Shown piece after piece: positions 5,191 to 57,385 of a stretch of 64,000 nucleotides of DNA. The notes beneath the pieces are model-generated. The model was given only the letters and a program-made list of their open reading frames with translations. It had not been told where the DNA came from and ran no database searches. The DNA is from Mobula hypostoma (lineage: Eukaryota). The stretch lies in NCBI RefSeq assembly GCF_963921235.1, contig NC_086108.1, forward strand, positions 65,412,001 to 65,476,000, given 5' to 3'. Within the stretch, counting starts at the first letter, position 1, and each line of letters opens with the position of its first letter. The translations under genes and the position numbers were made by a program.

Positions 5191-7051
5191 GACTACTCAG
5201 TAGCTATGTCCTGGCTCAGTTTGGCAAAATCTGCAGATCTCATATTGGCATTATCAACCAGCTCAGAGCCTACAGAACTAGGTTGTTAGCAAGTCACCTA
5301 GGGGGAGAAAAAAATAATTGTACTTGTAAGCAGGAATTTTATAAAATGGATCCAAAAATGAAATATGCATATAGAGTAATCACTCGTCTATAATTACTCG
5401 GATGTGGAGGGTTGAGACAGAGAGTTTTGAAGAGCCTAAATTGGAAATTTATTTGGTGAAATTGATACACTTTCAAGAAATTATATATTTATTGTCAACC
5501 CTGGCTGACTTATTATCAGTAATTACTGAGTGAGGAATTAGAGTTTCAGCCAGACCTGACTGGATAGTGTTGCTGTACTCTTTGAAGGCATCAGTTGACA
5601 ACTTTCATGACGGATTTATGTGCAAGACCCCAAAACAAAAGCTGATTTTTTTTTTGTTAATATTACATTTTCCATTGTAATATTTTCATTGTCAAATTCC
5701 AAAATTTGAAAATCATAGTCGGTAATATATCAGGGGTTTTTGATGGTTCACGTAGTGATTTGTCCATACTTTTTTCGTTAATCACAGGAATAGCCAAACT
5801 GATAATCTTAGGATTTTCAAAAAATTACAGAGACTTGGCACTTGAGGAACAAACACATATTTATATTTAAAATTTTATGAATCCTCATTTTGATTCTTGA
5901 TTGGGATATTAATCTTTTTTTCAGTTGTGTTTGCTGTAAGTTTACAAAGCAGAAGATTGTCTTCACAGATGACTTGGTGATATAGTGTTACCATCTAGTA
6001 AATGTAGTTTATTTACATTTTTGGAATGGTTTTGATAAACTTCTGAAACTTTAAAAAGCAGCTAAATGCATACACAGATTGTACATCAGATTGTTATGGC
6101 AATACAAGTTTTAAGATGGATCATTGGAGTTTGGACTGTTGCATTTTTGCTGGATCATTTGACAGACATCTGTTATTAAAGTACGTTTTTAATAGATAAG
6201 AGCATTTAAATTAGTACTATAAAACTTCCCAGTGTCCCAAAATATCTCATGACAAGACTGAAGTATAGGAGATCAATTTTTGTTAAATTTTACCCATCAT
6301 TATTAACCTCTTCTGTTTAAATATATCTATACAGAGATGAGCTAAAAACTGGTGGATGGTAGTTAATAAAGATAAGTAAAAATTAAACAAATATCACAGG
6401 ACTTGGGCTGACCTTTCACTGAAAGTAGCAAACAAAGTTGGTGTTAAGCCTTCTGTAGAGGCAAATAAAATTCTAGTGTATTTTTCAAAAGAACTTGACT
6501 TCAAATTTTCTCTTAAAGATTAAATCTACAATATTAATACATAAACTATCCAATTTCATATGGTCATATAGTATTTTAGAGGCTGTAGAGATGAACATCA
6601 CAGTGCAGCTACAGCACCATCACATGGTCGCAGCTTGCAACGACAGGTTCACTGGGATGAATTAACATGGGGATTTTAAATTATGGTAATTTTCAGAGGT
6701 ATTTTAGACCATAAGACATAGGAACAGAATTAGGTCATTTGGGCCATGGAGTCTGCTCTGCCATTAAATCATGGCTGATCTTTTTTTCCTCCCATCCTCA
6801 GCCCCACTTCTTGGGCTTCTCCCCGTAACCTTTGACGCCATGTCCAATCAAGAACCTGTCAAGCTCTGTCTTAAATACATACAACGATCTGACCTCCACA
6901 GCTACCTGCGGCAATGCACTCCACAAATTCACCGCTGTCAGGCTGAAAAGAATTCTCAGCATCTCAGTTTTAAATGGATGCCACTCTATCCTGAGGCTGT
7001 GCCCTCTTGTCCTAGACTCCCCTACCATGGGAAACATCCTTTCCACATCTA

Positions 7052-7166
7052 ACTCTCTTCCTTCAGTTAGTCCTGACGAAGGGTCTCGGCCTGAAACGTC
7101 GACTGCGCCTCTTCCTATAGATGCTGCCTGGCCTGCTGCGTTCACCAGCAACTTTGATGTATGTTG
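7052..7166 (+). mobile_element. PLE 3'-end insertion nested in CR1, 13-bp TSD
   Basis: Flanked by ctttccacatcta at 7039-7051 and 7167-7179; same family as the end of the PLE at 40737-42078. Confidence 0.85.
7069..7104 (+). ncRNA. Minimal type-I hammerhead ribozyme (PLE-associated)
   Basis: AGUC-CUGACGA-AGGgucucggCCU-GAAAC-GUC/GACU. All core nucleotides present; stem I AGUC:GACU; predicted cleavage after 7100. Confidence 0.75.
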
Positions 7167-8522
7167 CTTTCCACATCTACTCTGTTTAGGCCTTTCCACA
7201 TTTAAAAGTTTCAATGACATCCACCCTTGTCATCCTTCTAAATTCCAGTGAGTACAGACCCAGAGCCATCAATGTTCCTAGTATGATAACCCTTTCATTC
7301 TCAGAATCATCCTTGTGAACCTCCTCTGAACCATTTCCAATGTCAGCTTTTGAAATGTGGAGTGACATTTGCAAATTTCCAGTCCTCTGGCACCATGCCA
7401 GAGTCCAGTGATTTTTGAAAGATATTTACTAATGCCTCCATAGACTCTACTGCTACCTCTTTCAGAACCCTCGGGTACAGTTCATCTGGTCCGGGTGACT
7501 TAAGTACCCTTCTGTCTTTTAGCTTTTTAAGCACCTTCTCCCTTGAATAGTATCTGTACTCACTTCTCTTCCTTCATACCCTTCAACATGTGGCACACTA
7601 CTCGTGTCTTCCACAGTGAAGGTTGATACAAAATACTCATTTAATTCATCTGCTATCTCCTTGTCCCCTGCTATTATTTCCCTAGCCTCATTTTCTAGTG
7701 GTCCTATATCCACTTTCATCTCTCTTTTATATTTATATACTTGAAAAAGCTTTTGCAATCCACTTTGATATTGTTTGCTAGCTTGCTTTTATATTTCACC
7801 TTTTCCCTCCTAATGATTCTTTTAGTTATTCTCTGTAGGATTTTATAAGCTTCCCAATCTTCTGCCTTCGAGCTAACTTTTACTTTGTTGTATGCCCCCT
7901 TTTACTTTTTTGTTAGCTTTGGTTTCCCTTGTCAACCACAGTCGTACTCTCTTGCCATTTGAATATTTCTTCTTTTTTCGAATACATCTATCCTGCTTCC
8001 TCAGTTTTCTCAGAAACGCACACCATTGCTGCTTTGCTATCATCCCAGCCAGCATCTCCTTTCGATTTACTTCCACCAACTCCTCTCTCATACCAATGTA
8101 ATTTTATTTACTCCACTGAAATACTGTTACATTAGACTTTACTTTCTCCTTATCAAATTTCAAGTTGAACTCAATTAAATTGTGATCACTGCCTCCTAGG
8201 GGTTCTTTTACCTTAAGTTCCCTAATCACCTCTGGTTCATTACATAAAACCCAATCCAGTATAGCTGATCCCCTAGTAGAAACTGCTCTAAAAAGCCATC
8301 TTGTAGGCATTCCATAAACTGACTGTTTTGAGAACAATTACCAACCTGATTTTCCCAATCTACCTGAAAATTGAAATCTCCCATGACCGTCATAACACTG
8401 CCCTTTGACACGCCTTTTCTATTTCCTTTTTTCTATTTTAATGTTATATGTTGCTAATCAATGTCTCCATCCTTTTGTCCCTCTCTGATATTGTCTTCAG
8501 GCAAATGAATGGCTTTCATTTG

Positions 8523-9869: not shown

Positions 9870-11711
9870 ATAGAACATAGAAATTGACAGCGCATTACAG
9901 GCCCTTCGGCCCGCAATGTTGTGTCAACTATGTAACCTACCCTACAGACTGTCTAGAATTTCCCTAGTGCATAGCCCTCTATTTTCCTAAGCTCCATGTA
10001 CCTATTTAAGAGGCTCTTAAAAGACCCTATTGTATCCGCTTCCACCACCGCCGCTGGCAGTGCATTCCACACACCCACCACTCTGTGTGGGAAAACTTCG
10101 CACTGACATCCCTTTGGTACCTATTTCCAAGCACCTTAAAACTATGCCCCCTCATGTTAGCCATTTCATCCCTGGGAAAAAGCCTCTGGCTATCCACACG
10201 ATCAATGCCCCTAATCATCTTATACACCTCTATCAGGTCACCTCTCATCCTCCATCATTTCAAGGAGAAAAGTATACTCAACCTATTCTCATAAGGTATG
10301 CCCTCCAATCCAGGCAGCATCCTTGTAAATCTCCTCTGCACTCTCTCTATAGTATCCACATCCTTCCTGTAGTAAGGTGACCAGAACTGAACACAATACT
10401 CCAAATGGGGTCTAACTAAGGTCTTGTATAGCTGTAACATTACCTCACGGCTCTGGAACTCAATATCACGGTTGATGAATGCCAGCACACCATATACCTT
10501 CTTAACAACATTGTCAACCTGTGCAGCAGCTTTGAGTGTCCTATCGACATGGACCCCAAGATCTCTCAGATCCTCCACACTGCCAACAGTCTTACCATTT
10601 ATATTATATTCTGTCTTCAAATTGGACCTACCAAAATGAATCACTTCACACTTATCTGGGTTGAAGTCCATCTGCCACTTCTCAGCCCAATTCTGCATCC
10701 TATCGATGTCCCGCTGTAATCTCTGACAACTCTCCAGACCATGCACAACATTCCCAACCTTCGTGTCATCAGTAAATTTACTAACCCACCCTTCTACTTC
10801 TTCATCCAGGTCATTTATAAAAATCACGAAGAACAGGGTCCTAGAACGGATCCTTGAGGCACACCACTGGTCACTGACCTCCAAGCAGAATATGACCCGT
10901 CTACAATCACTCTTTGTACTCTGTGGGCAAGCCAATTCTGGATTCACAAAGCAAGGTCTTCTTGGATCCCATGCCCCTTTACTCTCTGAAGGAGCCTTGC
11001 ATGGGAAACTTTATCAAATGCCTTACTGAAATACATATACACTACACACATAAAAGTTGCTGGTGAACGCAGCAGGCCAGGCAGCATCTCTAGGAAGATC
11101 TCTAGAGATGCTGCCTGGCCTGCTGCGTTCACCAGCAACTTTTATGTGTGTTGCTTGAATTTCCAGCATCTGCAGAATTTCCTGTTGTTTGCGTACATAT
11201 ACACTACAACCACTGCTCAACCGTTATTAATGTGTTTTGTTACATGCTCAAAGAATTTAATCAGGCTCATAAGGCACGACCGCCCTTGACAAAGCCATGC
11301 TGACTATCCCTCATCAGATTATGTCTCTCCAAATGCTCATAAGTCCTGCCTGTCAGAATCTTCTGTAACAACTTGCCCACCAGTGATGTCACTGATCTAT
11401 AATTTCCTGAGTTATCTCTACTCCCTTTCTTGAACAAGGGAACAGCATTTGCAACCCTCCAATCCTCCAGTACTTCTGCCATCCCTATTGATGATGCAAA
11501 GATCATAGCAAGAGGCTCAGCAATCTCCTCCCTCAGCAGCCTGGTGTATATCTCATGCGGTCCTGGTCCTAACTTAATGCTTTTCAAAAGCTCCAGCACA
11601 TCCTCTTTCTTAATGTTTAAATGCTCAAGCATTTCAGTCCGCTGTAAGTCATCCCCACAATTGCCAAGGCCCTTTTCACTGGTGAATGCTGAAGCAAAGT
11701 ATTCATTAAGA
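9870..11711 (-). mobile_element. CR1 LINE RT fragment + 3'UTR
   Basis: FINDLDEEVEGWVSKFTDDTK, LYKTLVRPHLEYCVQFWSPYYRKD; (atagaac) tail. Confidence 0.92.
11047..11193. mobile_element. Palindromic PLE-end insertion, 15-bp TSD
   Basis: TSD tacatatacactaca at 11032-11046 and 11194-11208; 50-bp inverted arms 11044-11093 and 11102-11151. Confidence 0.85.
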
Positions 11712-21132: not shown

Positions 21133-21160
21133 AGTGTGTGTGTGTGTATGTATATGCATA

Positions 21161-21231
21161 TACAGTACTGTGAAAAAGTCTTGGGTACATATATGTAGCC
21201 AAGTTGCCTAAGACATTTGCACAGTACTGTA
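21161..21231. mobile_element. 71-bp Tc1-type mini-MITE
   Basis: TA-cagtactgtgaaaaagtcttggg ... cctaagacatttgcacagtactg-TA inverted ends. Confidence 0.6.
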
Positions 21232-21954
21232 TTTGTCAACGTGAAGCAGAGATTAAGTTTGTAAATCTGCTGGGAGCAAATGATTTTGGGAATGGTGAGG
21301 GTGAGGCACTGTGAATGGAGGGGGGTGGGGGTGTAACCAGGCAAGGTAATTTGATTCCAAACAATTGGTTTATTGATCATTATAGAATGTCTTTCTGGTG
21401 CTTTCCACTCCCTTCCCTCTTCCTTCCCCTTCTCCAAGGATCCCTTATCTTGCCATTTGGCATACTTCATGTTCACATTCTTAATGTTCACATTCTTAAA
21501 TCAGAGGGTCTTACAATAATAAGTAGAACTGATTTCAGATTTTTGTGCTCTACTCATTATGATGCAGTTTGGCACCTGTTTAAGGTATTATTTTGACTTT
21601 TTCTCATGTTTGCCTTTTATTTTTGGTAAAGTTTATGGTGTGTAGTTAACTTTACTTGTATGTATGCAATTCACTTGACAGAATATATGTACATAGAGAA
21701 CTGTTGTGTGACTGATAGTGATGAGGACCTTGAGGTTGATTATTAAAAACAACTTAAATTCTGCTCTAAGTATTAACTGATGTAAAGGTGAATTTTGGCC
21801 AGTTACCATTTTATATTATTAATGAGTTATGGAGAGAAAAATTTAAAGAACATACAGTAAGCAAATTATGTAGGTAATTGAGGAGTATTAAGTGAAACAC
21901 TGCTGCAGTAGGAAAGTAGTTTATACAAATAAGGATGTACAAGAAATACTGCTC

Positions 21955-29841: not shown

Positions 29842-30142
29842 GCATCTGTTAGTCTCGTGAGACCATGGATTTGCGCCTAGGAAAGTTTCCAGGGCGCAGG
29901 CCTGGGCAAGGTTGTATGGAAGACTGGCAGTTGCCCATGCTGCAAGTCTCCCCTCTCCACGCCACCGATGTTTTCCAAGGGAAGGACACTAGGGCCAATA
30001 CAGCTTGGCACCGGTGTTGTCACAGAGCAATGTGTGGTTAAGTGCCTTGCTCAAGGACACAACATGCTGCCTCAGCTGAGGCTCGAACTAGCGACCTTCA
30101 GATCACTAGACTGATGCCTTAACCACTTGGCCACATGCCAAC
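29842..30142 (-). mobile_element. tRNA/CORE-type SINE with RTE-like tail
   Basis: Minus strand TGGCCAAGTGGTTAAGG (A box), GTTCGAGCC (B box), tgtgtccttgagcaaggcacttaacc core; imperfect TSD acaaYctatcatatMtag at 29824-29841 and 30141-30158. Confidence 0.8.
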
Positions 30143-30439
30143 AATCTATCATATATAGTCACATCAATTAATAAACTCACAGGAGGAGATGATGTTAAGA
30201 CCATCAAGCCTGTGTGGTAGTAGTCCAGCAGCTGATGACTGGGCACCAAGGCAAGTATCTACAACCAACTTCAGTAAAAATAACAAGGTTTCTGAAGTTC
30301 TTGCTATCATGGAATTTATTTTTATGCCATTTCAATTCACTTCACATGATTTCTAGAAGTGGCTGAGAGAACTAGATTTAGAAAGTGCTTTGGGATCTGA
30401 CAACATTTTGACTGTAGCATTGAAGACCTTTACCATAGA

Positions 30440-40736: not shown

Positions 40737-42078
40737 TATATTCACTTTGCCTCCAACTTCCACCCTGCCCTCAAATTTACCTGGTCCATTTCTGACACTT
40801 CCTTTCCCTTTCTCGACCTCACTGTCTCTATCTCCAGAGTTGGCTTATCCACTGATGTCTATTATAAACCAGCGAACTTTCACAGCTACCTGGACTGTAT
40901 CTCGTCCCACCTTGCTACTTGTAAAAATGCCATCCCCTTCTCTCAATTCCTCCATCTCCACGGCATCTGCTCTCAGGATAAGGCTTTTCGTTCTAGAGCG
41001 AAGGAGATGTCTTCCTTTTTCAAAGAAAGGGGCTTCCCTTCCTTCACCATCAACGCTGCTCTCAACTGCATCTCTTCCATTTCATGCACGTTTGCTCTTA
41101 CCTCATCCTCCTGCCATGTTATCAGGGATAGGGTTCTTCTTGCCCTCAGCTACCACTCCACCAGCCTCCGCATCCAACGCATAATTCTCCGAAACTTCTG
41201 TCACCTCCAACTGGATCCCACCACCAAACACGTCTTTCTCTCCCCTCATTTTCTCCTTTCTGCAAGGACCTCTCCCTACGTGACTCCCTTGTCCGTTTGC
41301 CCTCCCCACTGATCTCCCTCCTGGCACTTATCCTTGCAAGCGGAACATGTGCTACACCTGCCCCTTCTCCCTCGCTACCATTCAGGGCCCCAAACAGTCC
41401 GTCCAAGTGAGGCAATATTTCACCTGTCAGGCTGTTGGAGTCATATACTGTGTTTGGTGCTCCTGGTGTGACCTCTTGCATATTGGTGAGACCCGAAGTA
41501 GATTGGGAGACGGCTTCACCGAGCATCTACGCTCCGTTCGCCAGATCAAGTGGGATCTCCCAGTGGCCGTCCATTTTAATTCCACTTCCCATTCGCATTC
41601 TGACGTATCAGTCCACGGCCTCCTCCACTGTTGGAATAAGGCCACACTTAAGTTGGAGGAGCAACACCTTGTATTCCATTTGGGTATCCAACCTGATAAC
41701 ATGAACATGGATTTCTCAAACTTCTAGTAATGCCCCCCCCTTTCCATTTCCCATCCCCTTGTCCATCTCTCATGTTATCTCCTTGCCTGTCCATTGTCTC
41801 CCTCTGCTGCTCCTCCTCTACCCCCCCCCGCCATATCTTTCTTCCATGGCCTTCTGTCTCTTTCACCTGTCAGCTTCCCAGCTCTTTGCTTCATCCCTCC
41901 CCCTCCAAGTTTCACCTATCGCCTGGCATTTGTCTGTCCCCTCTCCCCACCTTTCAAATCTACTCCTCAGCTTTTTGTTCCACCAGTCCTGCCGAAAGGT
42001 TTCGGCCTGAAACATTGATATTCTTTTTCATAGATGTTGCCTGGCCTGCTGAGTTCCTCCAGCATTTTGTGTGTGTTT
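40737..42078 (+). mobile_element. Penelope-like element (Neptune-type): RT C-terminus + Cys linker + GIY-YIG endonuclease + pLTR end
   Basis: FHPALKFTWSISDTSLPFLD, MSSFFKERGFP, CYTCP..FTC..VIYCVWCSWCDLLHIGETRSRL..EHL; degenerate hammerhead CUGcCGA...GAAAC at 41989-42016. Confidence 0.9.
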
Positions 42079-50689: not shown

Positions 50690-52135
50690 GGAAGTTACAG
50701 ATATGATTCATTTTCATTTGAATTGCTACTAAAAGTCTGCCATAATTGGTTGCATTGAGTTGTTCTCCAATCTTGGCAATCCATTTGCAAGCGTTTTGTC
50801 ACCATATAAAGAGACGTCATCAGTGCGCTGTTCATTTGTGGTGTGTCCTTCGATTGCTTGGCCTTTATATACTTATCAATCAGTTGAATGGTCGTGATTA
50901 CAGAATTGTGATGTAGAGAGAGGGTCGACTCTCTGATTGGATGCATGATGACCTGTGTGCATTGTCTGGAATTTTTCCTGCATTGATTTATAAATGGGAT
51001 CGAAGTCTACATGTCTGTTTATAGAATTGTTGGCGGAAAACCATGCTTCTAGGAATTCTCTTGCATGCTGCATGTTTGCTTGTACCATGACTTTCACTGA
51101 TACGCAGTTGAATTTGTGCCCCTCTCGGTCTTTGTGGGTAGTGACAAGGGAGAGCTGATCATGCCACTTCACAGCCAGCTGATGTTCATGGGTCTTTGTG
51201 GATAGTTTTCTCCCAGTTTGGCTGATGTAATATTTGATGCAGTACCCGCACTGGATTTTGTAGACCAGATTGGTCTTGTCCAATAGCTTGGCTTGTTCTT
51301 TGAGTCTGCAGAGTACTCAACGTTGCTGTTGGCTTGTGCATGACTGAAATTCTCTGTTCTTGGAGCAGTCAGGCTGTCATTTCTGAGATACTTTGAATGT
51401 ATGGAAGGACAACCCGTTCGGTCACTTCCTGGATGGTGCGTTATTGACCTTGTAGGCATCTTCATATGAAGTTGCGTCGGTATCCATTTCGTGTGAATAC
51501 TTTGAAGAGATGTTTCTCCTCAGTGTGTCTCTGCTCTTTGGAACAAAGTTTTGATACTGCTCTTGTGTGCATTTAGATCGTTACTGTGATAGTTTAGGAC
51601 CTGATCTGTATGTGTTCCCTTCCGATAAACAGATGTTTCTAATGTTCTGTGTTTCTACTGACAAGCATGTCTAAGAATGCCACTTTTCCCCTCGGTTTCT
51701 GTTTCCATCCTGAACTTAATATCATTGAACACATCGTTGACTAGTTTACAAGTTCTTTCAACTTCACTGTGTTTTAATATAACAAAGGTATCATTGACGT
51801 AATGGACCCAAATTTTAAGGATTATAATTGGCAACACCATATTTTCTAACTTTTGCATGATGGCTTCCACTATGACCCTGGAGATAGGGAACCCATTGGT
51901 GTCCCTTTCAGCTGTTTGTAAAGTGTGCTGTTAAATTTAAAGTAGGCACATAAGCAGAATTCTACCAGTTTGTATATGCTACCTTTACTTGCTCTCCCAT
52001 CATTTGGTTCTTCATTGGTGAGTAGTTCTATTAGAGTTTCTTTCCTAGGCTAAGATCAATAGAAGTGAACAGATAGATAATGGCTAAAGAGATCGTTGAT
52101 TTGCCATCACCTATGTTGATGTTGTTCAGGAATCT
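50690..52135 (-). mobile_element. Penelope-like element (Poseidon-type): RT + GIY-YIG
   Basis: GFPIS, IWVHYVNDTFVI, TNLVYKIQCGYCIKYYISQTGRKL..HEH..REFLEAW..SINR; degenerate hammerhead CUGAUGA at 50823-50817. Confidence 0.88.
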
Positions 52136-52344: not shown

Positions 52345-52566
52345 ATATCGACTCAGACCTTGAGAGGCCTGCGTTGGGCATTTTCATGCCTTACAAGGTG
52401 TAGATTGGAAGTCTGTGTGGGGCGCCACTCCTTGCACAGACACTAGAGCACTGTGTGGTTAAGTGCCTTGCTCAATGACACAAACACACTGCTACAGCTA
52501 AGGCTCGAACTGGCGACCTTCAGATCAGTAGAAGAACGCCTTAACCACTTGGCCACGTGCCCAACA
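52345..52566 (-). mobile_element. tRNA/CORE-type SINE (same head as 29842-30142, different tail)
   Basis: TGGCCAAGTGGTTAAGG, GTTCGAGCC, tgtgtcattgagcaaggcacttaacc. Confidence 0.8.
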
Positions 52567-55272: not shown

Positions 55273-55948
55273 AGTTCATTTGCACAGAAATCTTTATAGA
55301 GTAAAAAAAGTTATCTCTTCAGAGTAATATATCAGATCATCAACATAGTGTATCTCAGAATTTAACAATATCTGCAAGCCACTGGATCTGAAACACTGAG
55401 CGTAATAGAGTAGCAAGATACTTCTATGCTACATATGGCAGGTTGCCAGTGTCAGCTTTCATCATATAGAGTGGTTTGGAATGAAGGGCATGTGCTCTTC
55501 CCAGATGAGAAATTTGATCAGATAGTTGTTGCAGAGCATCTTTGGTATTACTAACCACTTTCTGAATCTGCCTTGCCACTTTATTCTTCTAATTTTTTTC
55601 ATAACAGCAAAGTCCTGACAGAAAATCTTTTCTTTTCTTAGTTGGAGATATTATATGATAGAAGGTAAAAGAAAATGAAAGATACATTTTATTCAATTAT
55701 TTTTGAGTAAACATTCATTTATTAGTGTTACTCATTGGGGAAGCCAATGTTTAAAAAAAAATCATGAGGCGGATTGATTAACAAATTGCAGAGTATAGAA
55801 ATGTAGAATGGTTATGGAACAAAAATCAGCCATTTAGCCCTTCATTTTGTGCTGTCTCCACCAAACCATTTCCACTAGTTTACCAGCAACACACTTCAAA
55901 GTTGCTGGTGAACGCAGCAGGCCAGGCAGCATCTCTCGGAAGAGGTGC

Positions 55949-55984
55949 AGTCAACGTTTCAGGCCGAGACCCTTCGTCAGGGCT
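55949..55984 (-). ncRNA. Minimal hammerhead ribozyme, GUU triplet
   Basis: AGCC-CUGACGA-AGGgucucggCCU-GAAAC-GUU/GACU; one stem I mismatch. Confidence 0.6.
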
Positions 55985-55991
55985 TCAGTTC

Positions 55992-56025
55992 GTCCTGACG
56001 AAGGGTCTCAGCCTGAAACGTCGAC
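55992..56025 (+). ncRNA. Minimal hammerhead ribozyme, GUC triplet
   Basis: GUC-CUGACGA-AGGgucucagCCU-GAAAC-GUC/GAC; predicted cleavage after 56022. Confidence 0.7.
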
Positions 56026-57189
56026 TGCACCTCTTCCTAGAGATGCTGCCTGGCCTGCTGCGTTCACCAGCAACTTTGATGTGTGTTGCTTGAATTTTCA
56101 GCATCTGCAGAATTCCTGTTGTTTCCACTAGTTTACTAGCCTTGTTTGTGTTGTCCTTCAAATTTTACTTCACAATTTCTTTATCCATTCTCTTGCAGGA
56201 TGGTGGATTTTAACTCCACCGCATCTGCTTGTATTCCAGATTACAAGATTCTTCTTCCTCATTTCACTCTTAATTATTTTCCTCCTTATTGTATACCCAT
56301 GATTTCTAGTTGCTGACCCCTCTGTTGAATGGGTACAATCTCCTTCTATCCTCTCTAGACTTGTCACTACTTCATCTACTTGTATCAAATTTCCCCTCAT
56401 CCTTAACATGAAAAAGTCCTAGCCCCTTATATCTTTGTTGTCCCTTACCTCAGGAGCTGTTCTTGTACTTCTTTCTGAACCTCTTTCTAATACCTTTGCA
56501 TCCTCCTTAAGTTGTGTCATCCAGGATTGAAAACAACATTCTAGCTGAAGCCAGACCAGCATTTGATCAAAGCTCAGCTTGATTTTCCTGCTTTTATACT
56601 GCATGCCCCTACAGTACAATATTGATGTGTTGGTAACGTGGGCAGAATAATGGCTGGAAAATGAGATTAGTGTAGGTAGATTTTGGATGCCTGGCATGGA
56701 CATGATGGCTAAGGGATTTGGATTCATGATAAAGTGAAGAATTCTATATGCCTTATACGCACTTTCACAACCTGCCTCTGTCACTTATACTGATTTGTAC
56801 GTGTGTGCCACCAGATTCCTCCACTCTTCAACGTCCTTTTGAATTAGGTTTGTTATTCTAAACTGCCTCTCCTCACTCTTCCTCCAAAAATATATCACTC
56901 ATATTTGCCTGTCTTAAAATTCAGCTGCCATGCATCTGCCCATTCCACCAGCCTTTTGATAATCTGCTACACTATGTCAATATCCTCTTCCAAGTTCACA
57001 GTACTGTTGAGTTCTGTGACGTTCACAGAAAGTGAAATTCAGGCTTTCAGTCACAAGCCTATACAAGTAATAAATGTTTTAAAAAACACGGTGATTCTAA
57101 CATGCAGCTCTGTGGAATGCCTACTATTCAATTTTCCTCTATTCCGAAAAACAACTTTTTTCTATGACTGTGGTCTGTTATGTTGCCAG

Positions 57190-57385
57190 TCACAAATAAG
57201 GGAAAATCTGCAGATCCTGGAAATCCAAGCAATATACACAAAGAGCTCAGCAGGCCAGACTGCATCTATGGAAAAGAGTAAACAGTAGATGTTTCAGGCT
57301 CCCAGCCTTCGTCAAGACTGGGAAAAAAGGCCCCCCCCCGCCACCATTTCCTCCAGCATTGTGTGTGTGTGTGTGTTTGTGTATT
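57190..57385. mobile_element. Older PLE-end insertion with a short inverted segment
   Basis: Minus-strand PLE end with mutated hammerhead uUGACGA-AGGC..GCCU-GAAAC-AUC (57283-57320), then + strand ttcctccagcattgtgtgt; imperfect TSD ttaYgttgcc. Confidence 0.6.

Follow-up and report, generated by a model that had tools for sequence, protein, structure and literature searches.

A young palindromic insertion of Penelope-like element terminal modules, with a hammerhead motif in each arm, in a PATJ intron of a ray

An intron of PATJ in the ray Mobula hypostoma carries a palindromic insertion with a hammerhead motif in each arm. We conclude that this palindrome is very probably the by-product of one retrotransposition of an abundant, endonuclease-positive (EN+) Penelope-like element (PLE) of the Neptune/Nematis type, its inversion being rebuilt at each insertion and its ribozymes travelling as passengers. 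The single locus matters little, being one of very many PLE stubs and probably inert; its value is that of a clean, dated specimen of a head-to-head PLE insertion, empty in one relative and shared in another. Positions given below are those of the window, the whole stretch of 64,000 nucleotides that was analysed, in which an earlier note had picked out this insertion from the letters alone.

Structure of the insertion

A perfect 15-mer target site duplication (TSD), TTTCCACTAGTTTAC, encloses the 238-bp insert, with its left copy at 55869-55883 (+) and its right copy at 56122-56136 (+), as the earlier note had described. In a control for chance, 2 of 2000 random 238-bp intervals of the window were flanked by a 15-bp repeat, both of them overlapping the PATJ-intron insertion itself, and the flanking repeat of the remaining 1998 was never longer than 9. 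The left copy corresponds to the single copy present at the empty site discussed below (run X11, record 10).

The two inverted arms (55885-55983 and 55992-56090) pair at 94 of 99 positions and are separated by an 8-nt spacer (55984-55991), so that the arms of about 99 bp and their separation stand as first read, with five mismatches now placed at 55895, 55937, 55953, 55965, and 55982. Folded as RNA, the palindrome forms a hairpin of -208.4 kcal/mol (z = -26), and none of 200 shuffled sequences was equally stable.

Alignment with a related copy at 7061 in the same window gives a more exact description of the parts. The left portion (55884-55984, minus strand) is an inverted, tail-less copy of a PLE 3' terminal module, whose outer end is equivalent to position 56090, one of two positions at which the 3' ends of the family cluster. 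The right portion (55983-56121, plus strand) is a direct copy of the same module, 5'-truncated just upstream of the hammerhead. The copies meet head to head at 55983-55984, two bases that fit both arms (2-nt microhomology), and most of the apparent spacer derives from the sequence that precedes the hammerhead in the direct arm. Beyond the paired region, the right arm has 31 further unpaired bases (56091-56121, plus strand), which are the PLE tail; this extension occurs on the direct arm only and ends near the second 3' end cluster (56124), as read from the alignment and from the clusters of loose ends in runs X1, X5, and X9. The claim that PLE insertions often have inverted 5' portions is thus supported here by an adjacent, inverted, 5'-truncated copy.

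Hammerhead motifs

The conserved hammerhead elements (CUGANGA, GAAA, an NUH triplet, stems I and II, and a loopless palindromic stem III) can be read in both arms, with a changed triplet and a stem I mismatch in the left one. On the plus strand, 55992-56025 is a minimal type-I hammerhead with the triplet GUC and a predicted cut after 56022; its core consists of stem I GUC/GAC, CUGACGA, a 3-bp stem II with a 7-nt loop, GAAA, the loopless ACGU of stem III, and GUC. Stem I has 3 bp in this motif versus 4 bp in the copy at 7061. The minus-strand motif (55949-55984) has an intact core, ACGU included, but is decayed: a CpG transition at 55953 made its triplet GUU, and a second change, a C.A mismatch at 55982, breaks stem I. 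GUU is a slower NUH triplet. Across the family, the same CpG changes account for 5-8% of the summed depth in X1. The minimal type-I hammerheads with loopless stem III, GUU on the minus strand and GUC on the plus, that the earlier note had reported therefore hold on motif reading, apart from the mismatch in the minus stem I.

One should not rely on the core pattern by itself. The bare pattern has five matches in the window against a shuffle mean of 2.4, and 13 of 100 shuffles reach five; Rfam gives no hammerhead match in the window, either at the gathering level or at E values up to 10. Our identification therefore rests on stems I and II together with the PLE context, and the minimal loopless form may fall outside the Rfam hammerhead models. 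MicroRNA-like Rfam hairpin matches (E up to 10, far below thresholds) were discounted, since the palindrome itself would produce them. When two identical short motifs were co-folded at minimum energy, the catalytic dimer fold appeared in none of three trials, which is weak evidence for helices as small as these.

The element family

Judged by sequence, the arms derive from the 3' terminal module of a Neptune/Nematis-type PLE, a module that comprises the hammerhead and an optional tail of about 34 nt; the clade assignment is made by linker motif. Besides the PATJ-intron palindrome, the window holds two young and two old members of the family. The first young copy (7039-7179, plus strand) is a plain, direct, tail-less insertion flanked by a 13-bp TSD; its one hammerhead (core 7073-7096) is intact. 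The second (11032-11208) is again head to head; its TSD is 15 bp, its arms match at all 50 of 50 positions, only the direct arm has a tail, and there is no hammerhead; its centre, near 11100, lies about 45 nt further 3' than that of the PATJ-intron palindrome. This second palindrome sits inside a CR1-like fragment and has a nearly loopless centre and a 2-nt junction deletion.

The first of the old members (40737-42077, plus strand) is a decayed PLE 3' part, in which frames for the RT end, the linker, and GIY-YIG (40737-41727) are followed by an older terminal module (41985-42077, 76% identical). Pfam has no match in the decayed PLE frames of the window, and their identity is therefore drawn from homologues. 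A representative library returned 2547 matches to the frame, and the ray homologues carry GIY-YIG; among the eight long homologues scanned, GIY-YIG was found in all eight, RVT_1 followed by GIY-YIG in six, and a CX2-5CxxC linker in all eight. The linker is also present in P0007 and in the window ORF at 41284, and in the excerpted text of PMC8557442 this linker, placed before GIY-YIG, marks Neptune and Nematis. The link to an ORF with RT and GIY-YIG runs through this older relative (76%) and not through the young subfamily itself, whose autonomous partner was not seen.

The insertion thus combines a module linked to an RT and GIY-YIG ORF, an inverted 5'-truncated copy, a one-sided tail, and a TSD, as do EN+ PLEs, and the PLE origin proposed at the outset is well supported. 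The family of terminal modules is also very abundant: 77,014 contigs of X1 match the interval 55400-56700 (1.3 kb), nearly all of them on the insert.

The other old member (57204-57318, minus strand) is a terminal module with tail, 73% identical, in the same PATJ intron and 1.1 kb downstream of the insertion; it opposes the orientation of the direct arm and could pair weakly with that arm in the pre-mRNA. A second, more distant decayed PLE-like endonuclease frame (50876-51519, minus strand; 25% to P0008) probably belongs to another clade. Unrelated to the PLE family is a weak 79-bp inverted repeat (21157-21235, 70%) whose ends resemble CAGTACTGTG and which may be an old MITE.

Origin of the palindrome

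Among the 24 loose-end rows shown of 943, the 3' ends of the family form two clusters in X1, X5, and X9, one at 56089-56091 and the other at 56124; the stretch of about 34 nt that separates them makes up the PLE tail. The two window palindromes agree in that the inverted arm begins at the first of these clusters or close to it and the direct arm finishes at the second, and both show 1-3 nt of target microhomology.

Joints between arms were also collected from contigs, of which the 15 best-supported of 375 are shown, and the table is biased, its reference arm ending near 55976-55982. In each of the 15, an inverted arm meets a direct one, no two joints share the point of contact, and in none have both cores survived; a copy with the same centre as the PATJ-intron palindrome would not show up in this table. 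In 13 of the 15, one arm ends at 55976-55982, a few bases from the upstream edge of the hammerhead, and nine of the 12 shown joints that have extra letters end at 55973-55981, with no more than three such letters. Two apparent patterns in this table should be set aside. The asymmetry between a long inverted arm and a short direct arm was rejected, as short contigs across a junction give an identical reading on the two strands, and a joint that resumes exactly at 56023, the predicted cleavage site, is one row of 15 and not evidence for cleaved templates.

We propose that an endonuclease-positive PLE would have cut the PATJ intron with a 15-nt stagger in a single event. Reverse transcription starting at the tail end would have produced the direct copy, reverse transcription starting at the upstream, tail-less end the inverted copy, and two short copies of the 3' terminal module would have been laid down head to head. 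The two motifs stand back to back because each copy happens to extend slightly beyond the hammerhead, and the inversion is most likely rebuilt at each insertion, since the centres of the window palindromes and the joints shown all differ. As to the way in which the arms were primed and joined, we put at about even the chance that both strands of the target served as primers, at the two RT start sites, and that microhomology then joined the cDNA ends.

For the priming step only, a fold-back origin of the inverted arm, either by self-priming on an antisense template or by the RT switching to its own cDNA, is a serious competitor that falls somewhat short of an even chance. The palindrome at 11 kb is what one would expect of it, being almost loopless with fully identical arms, both of which carry a minority T at the position equivalent to 56078 (about 27% of the summed depth in X1); identical arms would, however, also be expected from two RNAs of one source locus. 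Junction palindromes of rotifer Penelope elements are likewise read as self-priming in the excerpted text of PMC3846280, but fold-back alone leaves unexplained why the outer end of the inverted arm falls at the tail-less cluster, as it does in both window palindromes, with 3-nt microhomology to the target.

It is possible, if on the unlikely side, that the stubs are copied from a SINE-like, non-autonomous PLE RNA of about 140 nt that starts just upstream of the hammerhead. A dimeric PLE protein would start reverse transcription from the two nicked strands of the target, using both RT start sites and giving one arm with a tail and one without, the cDNA ends would be joined by microhomology, and a double-hammerhead palindrome would result where both cDNAs reach the 5' end of the RNA. 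A template beginning at the upstream edge of the hammerhead is hinted at because 13 of the 15 joints shown in the biased table have one arm ending there, as have both arms of the PATJ-intron palindrome; a further hint at this reading is that the outer ends of both window palindromes fall at the two end clusters. Directly upstream of stem I, at 7052-7072 and at 57319-57330 (minus strand), there is a pyrimidine tract ending in AG that resembles a 3' splice site, and an intron of Drosophila virilis Penelope ends at the 5' edge of helix I (PMC4209133); such a tract could explain why arms stop at this edge. If the short-RNA reading is true, many young, datable ray palindromes would record how PLE head-to-head inversions form.

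Very unlikely, in our assessment, is a suggestion of the earlier note, that the whole palindrome is a mobile unit of its own, here taken as a non-autonomous one moving as a hairpin RNA or as a PLE-copied, MITE-like element, with hammerheads serving both strands. The TSD does lie cleanly around the entire palindrome, and two of the three young insertions in the window are palindromic; but the two palindromes that are readable end to end, both in the window, differ in their centres, and the one at 11 kb is without a hammerhead. Some joints have summed depths of 86-331 against 12-18 for the flanks, which could mean amplified junctions, contig depth not being copy number, whereas all 15 of the shown joints differ from one another, and in a 99-bp hairpin neither the ribozyme nor the region where reverse transcription starts would be accessible. 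With the centre of the second palindrome different and the junctions variable, a separate mobile unit is not supported; nor are paired ribozymes as a designed feature, since the 11-kb palindrome lacks hammerheads and the left motif of the PATJ-intron copy is decayed.

The PATJ intron and its transcript

Ten exons of PATJ were mapped, all on the plus strand, and the exon at 23 kb matches ray inaD-like (PATJ) proteins (six matches among nine candidates), best of all that of Mobula hypostoma at 98%. The insertion lies in a GT..AG intron of this PATJ/inaD-like gene (29484-58557, plus strand, about 29 kb), between exons ending ...LDYQ and starting DPLD..., and 2.4 kb before the acceptor; exon mapping thereby bears out the location given earlier. 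At the insertion site, no additional exon is seen in the closest named PATJ protein. Two 120-bp copies of another repeat, 87% identical to each other, occur in the same intron (30024-30143 and 52445-52566).

Because the insertion lies in a plus-strand PATJ intron, the GUC motif is sense in PATJ pre-mRNA, and there is one sense motif per strand, which confirms that a transcript through the site would contain one hammerhead. Since the arms stand head to head, transcription of either strand also yields the antisense arm before the ribozyme. The sense hammerhead, made after its own antisense arm, would be expected to zip into the 99-bp duplex. In equilibrium folding, which ignores proteins, forcing only helices I and II to form within the palindrome costs 53.3 (plus) or 62.3 (minus) kcal/mol, as compared with 5.7 kcal/mol in the right arm alone, and this computed opening cost supports the masking by a duplex of about 99 bp that was predicted at the outset.

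The sense hammerhead would also be left without a nearby partner on the same strand, and would be decaying. Motifs on opposite strands cannot form the required intramolecular dimer, and no intact motif on the same strand is closer than about 49 kb, where one lies in another intron. The sense hammerhead is thus predicted to be unlikely to cleave PATJ pre-mRNA: the duplex masks the ribozyme, the antisense motif is no dimer partner, and the nearest intact partner is so distant. We infer that the ribozymes are probably passengers without function.

Intronic inverted repeats are general candidates for use by ADAR or Dicer. By analogy, the duplex is a plausible candidate substrate for editing or dicing, though incidental editing would not itself be function, and the family may seed many short, near-perfect intronic hairpins that are candidate editing substrates. 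Among the listed runs that contain the stretch, none is on record as RNA. X9, guessed to be an RNA run, lists the kinds of difference that the DNA run also has, and A>G is not among its rows; its contigs drop rare variants and pool all copies, so that this listing bears on editing in neither direction.

Presence in relatives and age

Four of the 24 listed sequencing runs (X1, X5, X9, and X11) were used for comparison over 55400-56700. Record 10 of X11 (organism C) joins 55868 straight to 56122, so that the site is empty there and the target is present once. In records 15 and 22 of X5 (organism B), the inverted end is attached to the left flank and the tail to the right one. Contigs of X1, possibly the window's own source and thus not independent, likewise tie both ends of the insertion to the flanks. 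Compared with the window, the flanks of organism B show 14 differences in 1113 bases (1.3%) and those of organism C 26 in 710 (3.7%).

The insertion is therefore true and young, being present at 1.3% flank divergence and absent at 3.7%, and it persists in two related organisms. We date it between the splits of organisms B and C, as it is present in the one and its site is empty in the other, and the five differences between the arms agree with this. Near the insertion, about 115 bp of the window (56204-56318) correspond to about nine bases in the empty-site contig of X11, which reflects either a deletion there or another insertion here.

These dates bear on the scarcely probable reading that the insertion was co-opted as a regulatory RNA in PATJ pre-mRNA, whether as an editing or dicing substrate or as a conditional ribozyme affecting splicing. 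It would be transcribed within the intron, the arms, with their 42 adenosines, form an almost perfect duplex, and two related organisms share it. It is, however, too young to be present where flanks differ by 3.7%, its arms have drifted at 5 of 99 pairs, among them the cleavage triplet and stem I, and neither the exon structure of the closest named PATJ protein nor incidental editing speaks for a function.

An assembly artefact, namely a fold-back chimera, is extremely improbable. Perfect-looking palindromes can be artefacts, and the centre is spanned by none of the 32 listed pieces (of about 132,000), so that the centre itself rests on the window sequence; but the arms differ at five positions, the TSD has a matching empty site, and an independent organism, that of X5, has both ends of the insertion on the corresponding flanks. 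This way in which the earlier reading might have failed is thus unlikely to apply.

Comparison with known systems

LINE-1 twin priming yields an inverted 5' segment, a TSD, and junction microhomology, as in the ray palindrome. Twin priming inverts the upstream part of one RNA, with arms that are largely non-overlapping, whereas both ray arms cover the same 99 bases.

Head-to-head units of inverted pLTR, tail, and TSD are an insertion pattern of EN+ PLEs in the excerpted texts of Arkhipova et al. 2013 (PMC3846280) and Craig et al. 2021 (PMC8557442). These share with the ray palindrome a direct repeat with an adjacent, inverted, 5'-truncated one, a 30-40-bp tail at one end, a TSD around the unit, and a palindrome at the junction. 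They differ in that the ray palindrome keeps no ORF (238 bp in all), its family is very abundant, and its host is a ray; its TSD is 15 bp, as compared with 8-10 bp in the rotifer PLE examples of the same two excerpts. Structure, one-sided tail, and TSD have therefore already been described for PLEs, and what is new is the family member in a ray, no description of this terminal-module family having been found in the literature searched. How head-to-head PLE inversions form is called undefined in the excerpt of PMC8557442.

Non-LTR retrozymes are, in excerpts of Cervera and de la Pena 2020 (PMC7229834) and Li et al. 2026 (10.64898/2026.07.22.740005), tandem units on the same strand with a hammerhead in each. 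They resemble the ray units in being short, non-coding, hammerhead-bearing, PLE-derived repeats, dispersed monomers being common, but we reject this class here, as the ray units are inverted, with one sense motif per strand and no same-strand tandem.

Pairs of minimal hammerheads on opposite strands, 100-700 bp apart, have been described (PMC4209133). Their loopless palindromic stem III and dimer-dependent architecture are those of the ray motifs, whereas the ray cores are only 14 bp apart (55980 and 55995), and stem II has 3 bp in the ray versus 7-8 bp in the Schistosoma motifs (PMC4209133). Minimal PLE hammerheads are inactive as monomers and have low dimer activity in vitro (PMC4209133; excerpt of the review PMC6765202).

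A mechanistic parallel is Poseidon of Anolis, for which the excerpted text of Frangieh et al. 2024 (PMC11167929) places the tail between two RT start sites and has both target strands nicked and extended in vitro. In that excerpt, uncleaved RNA is the main insertion substrate, and the hammerhead cleaves only with the element's protein; the origin of inverted copies is not among the results it gives. Poseidon belongs to another clade, the ray ORF relative having the Neptune/Nematis CX2-5CxxC linker, but in both systems, as far as that excerpt describes Poseidon, the tail is bounded by two adjacent RT start sites, and the hammerhead precedes them by about 100 nt.
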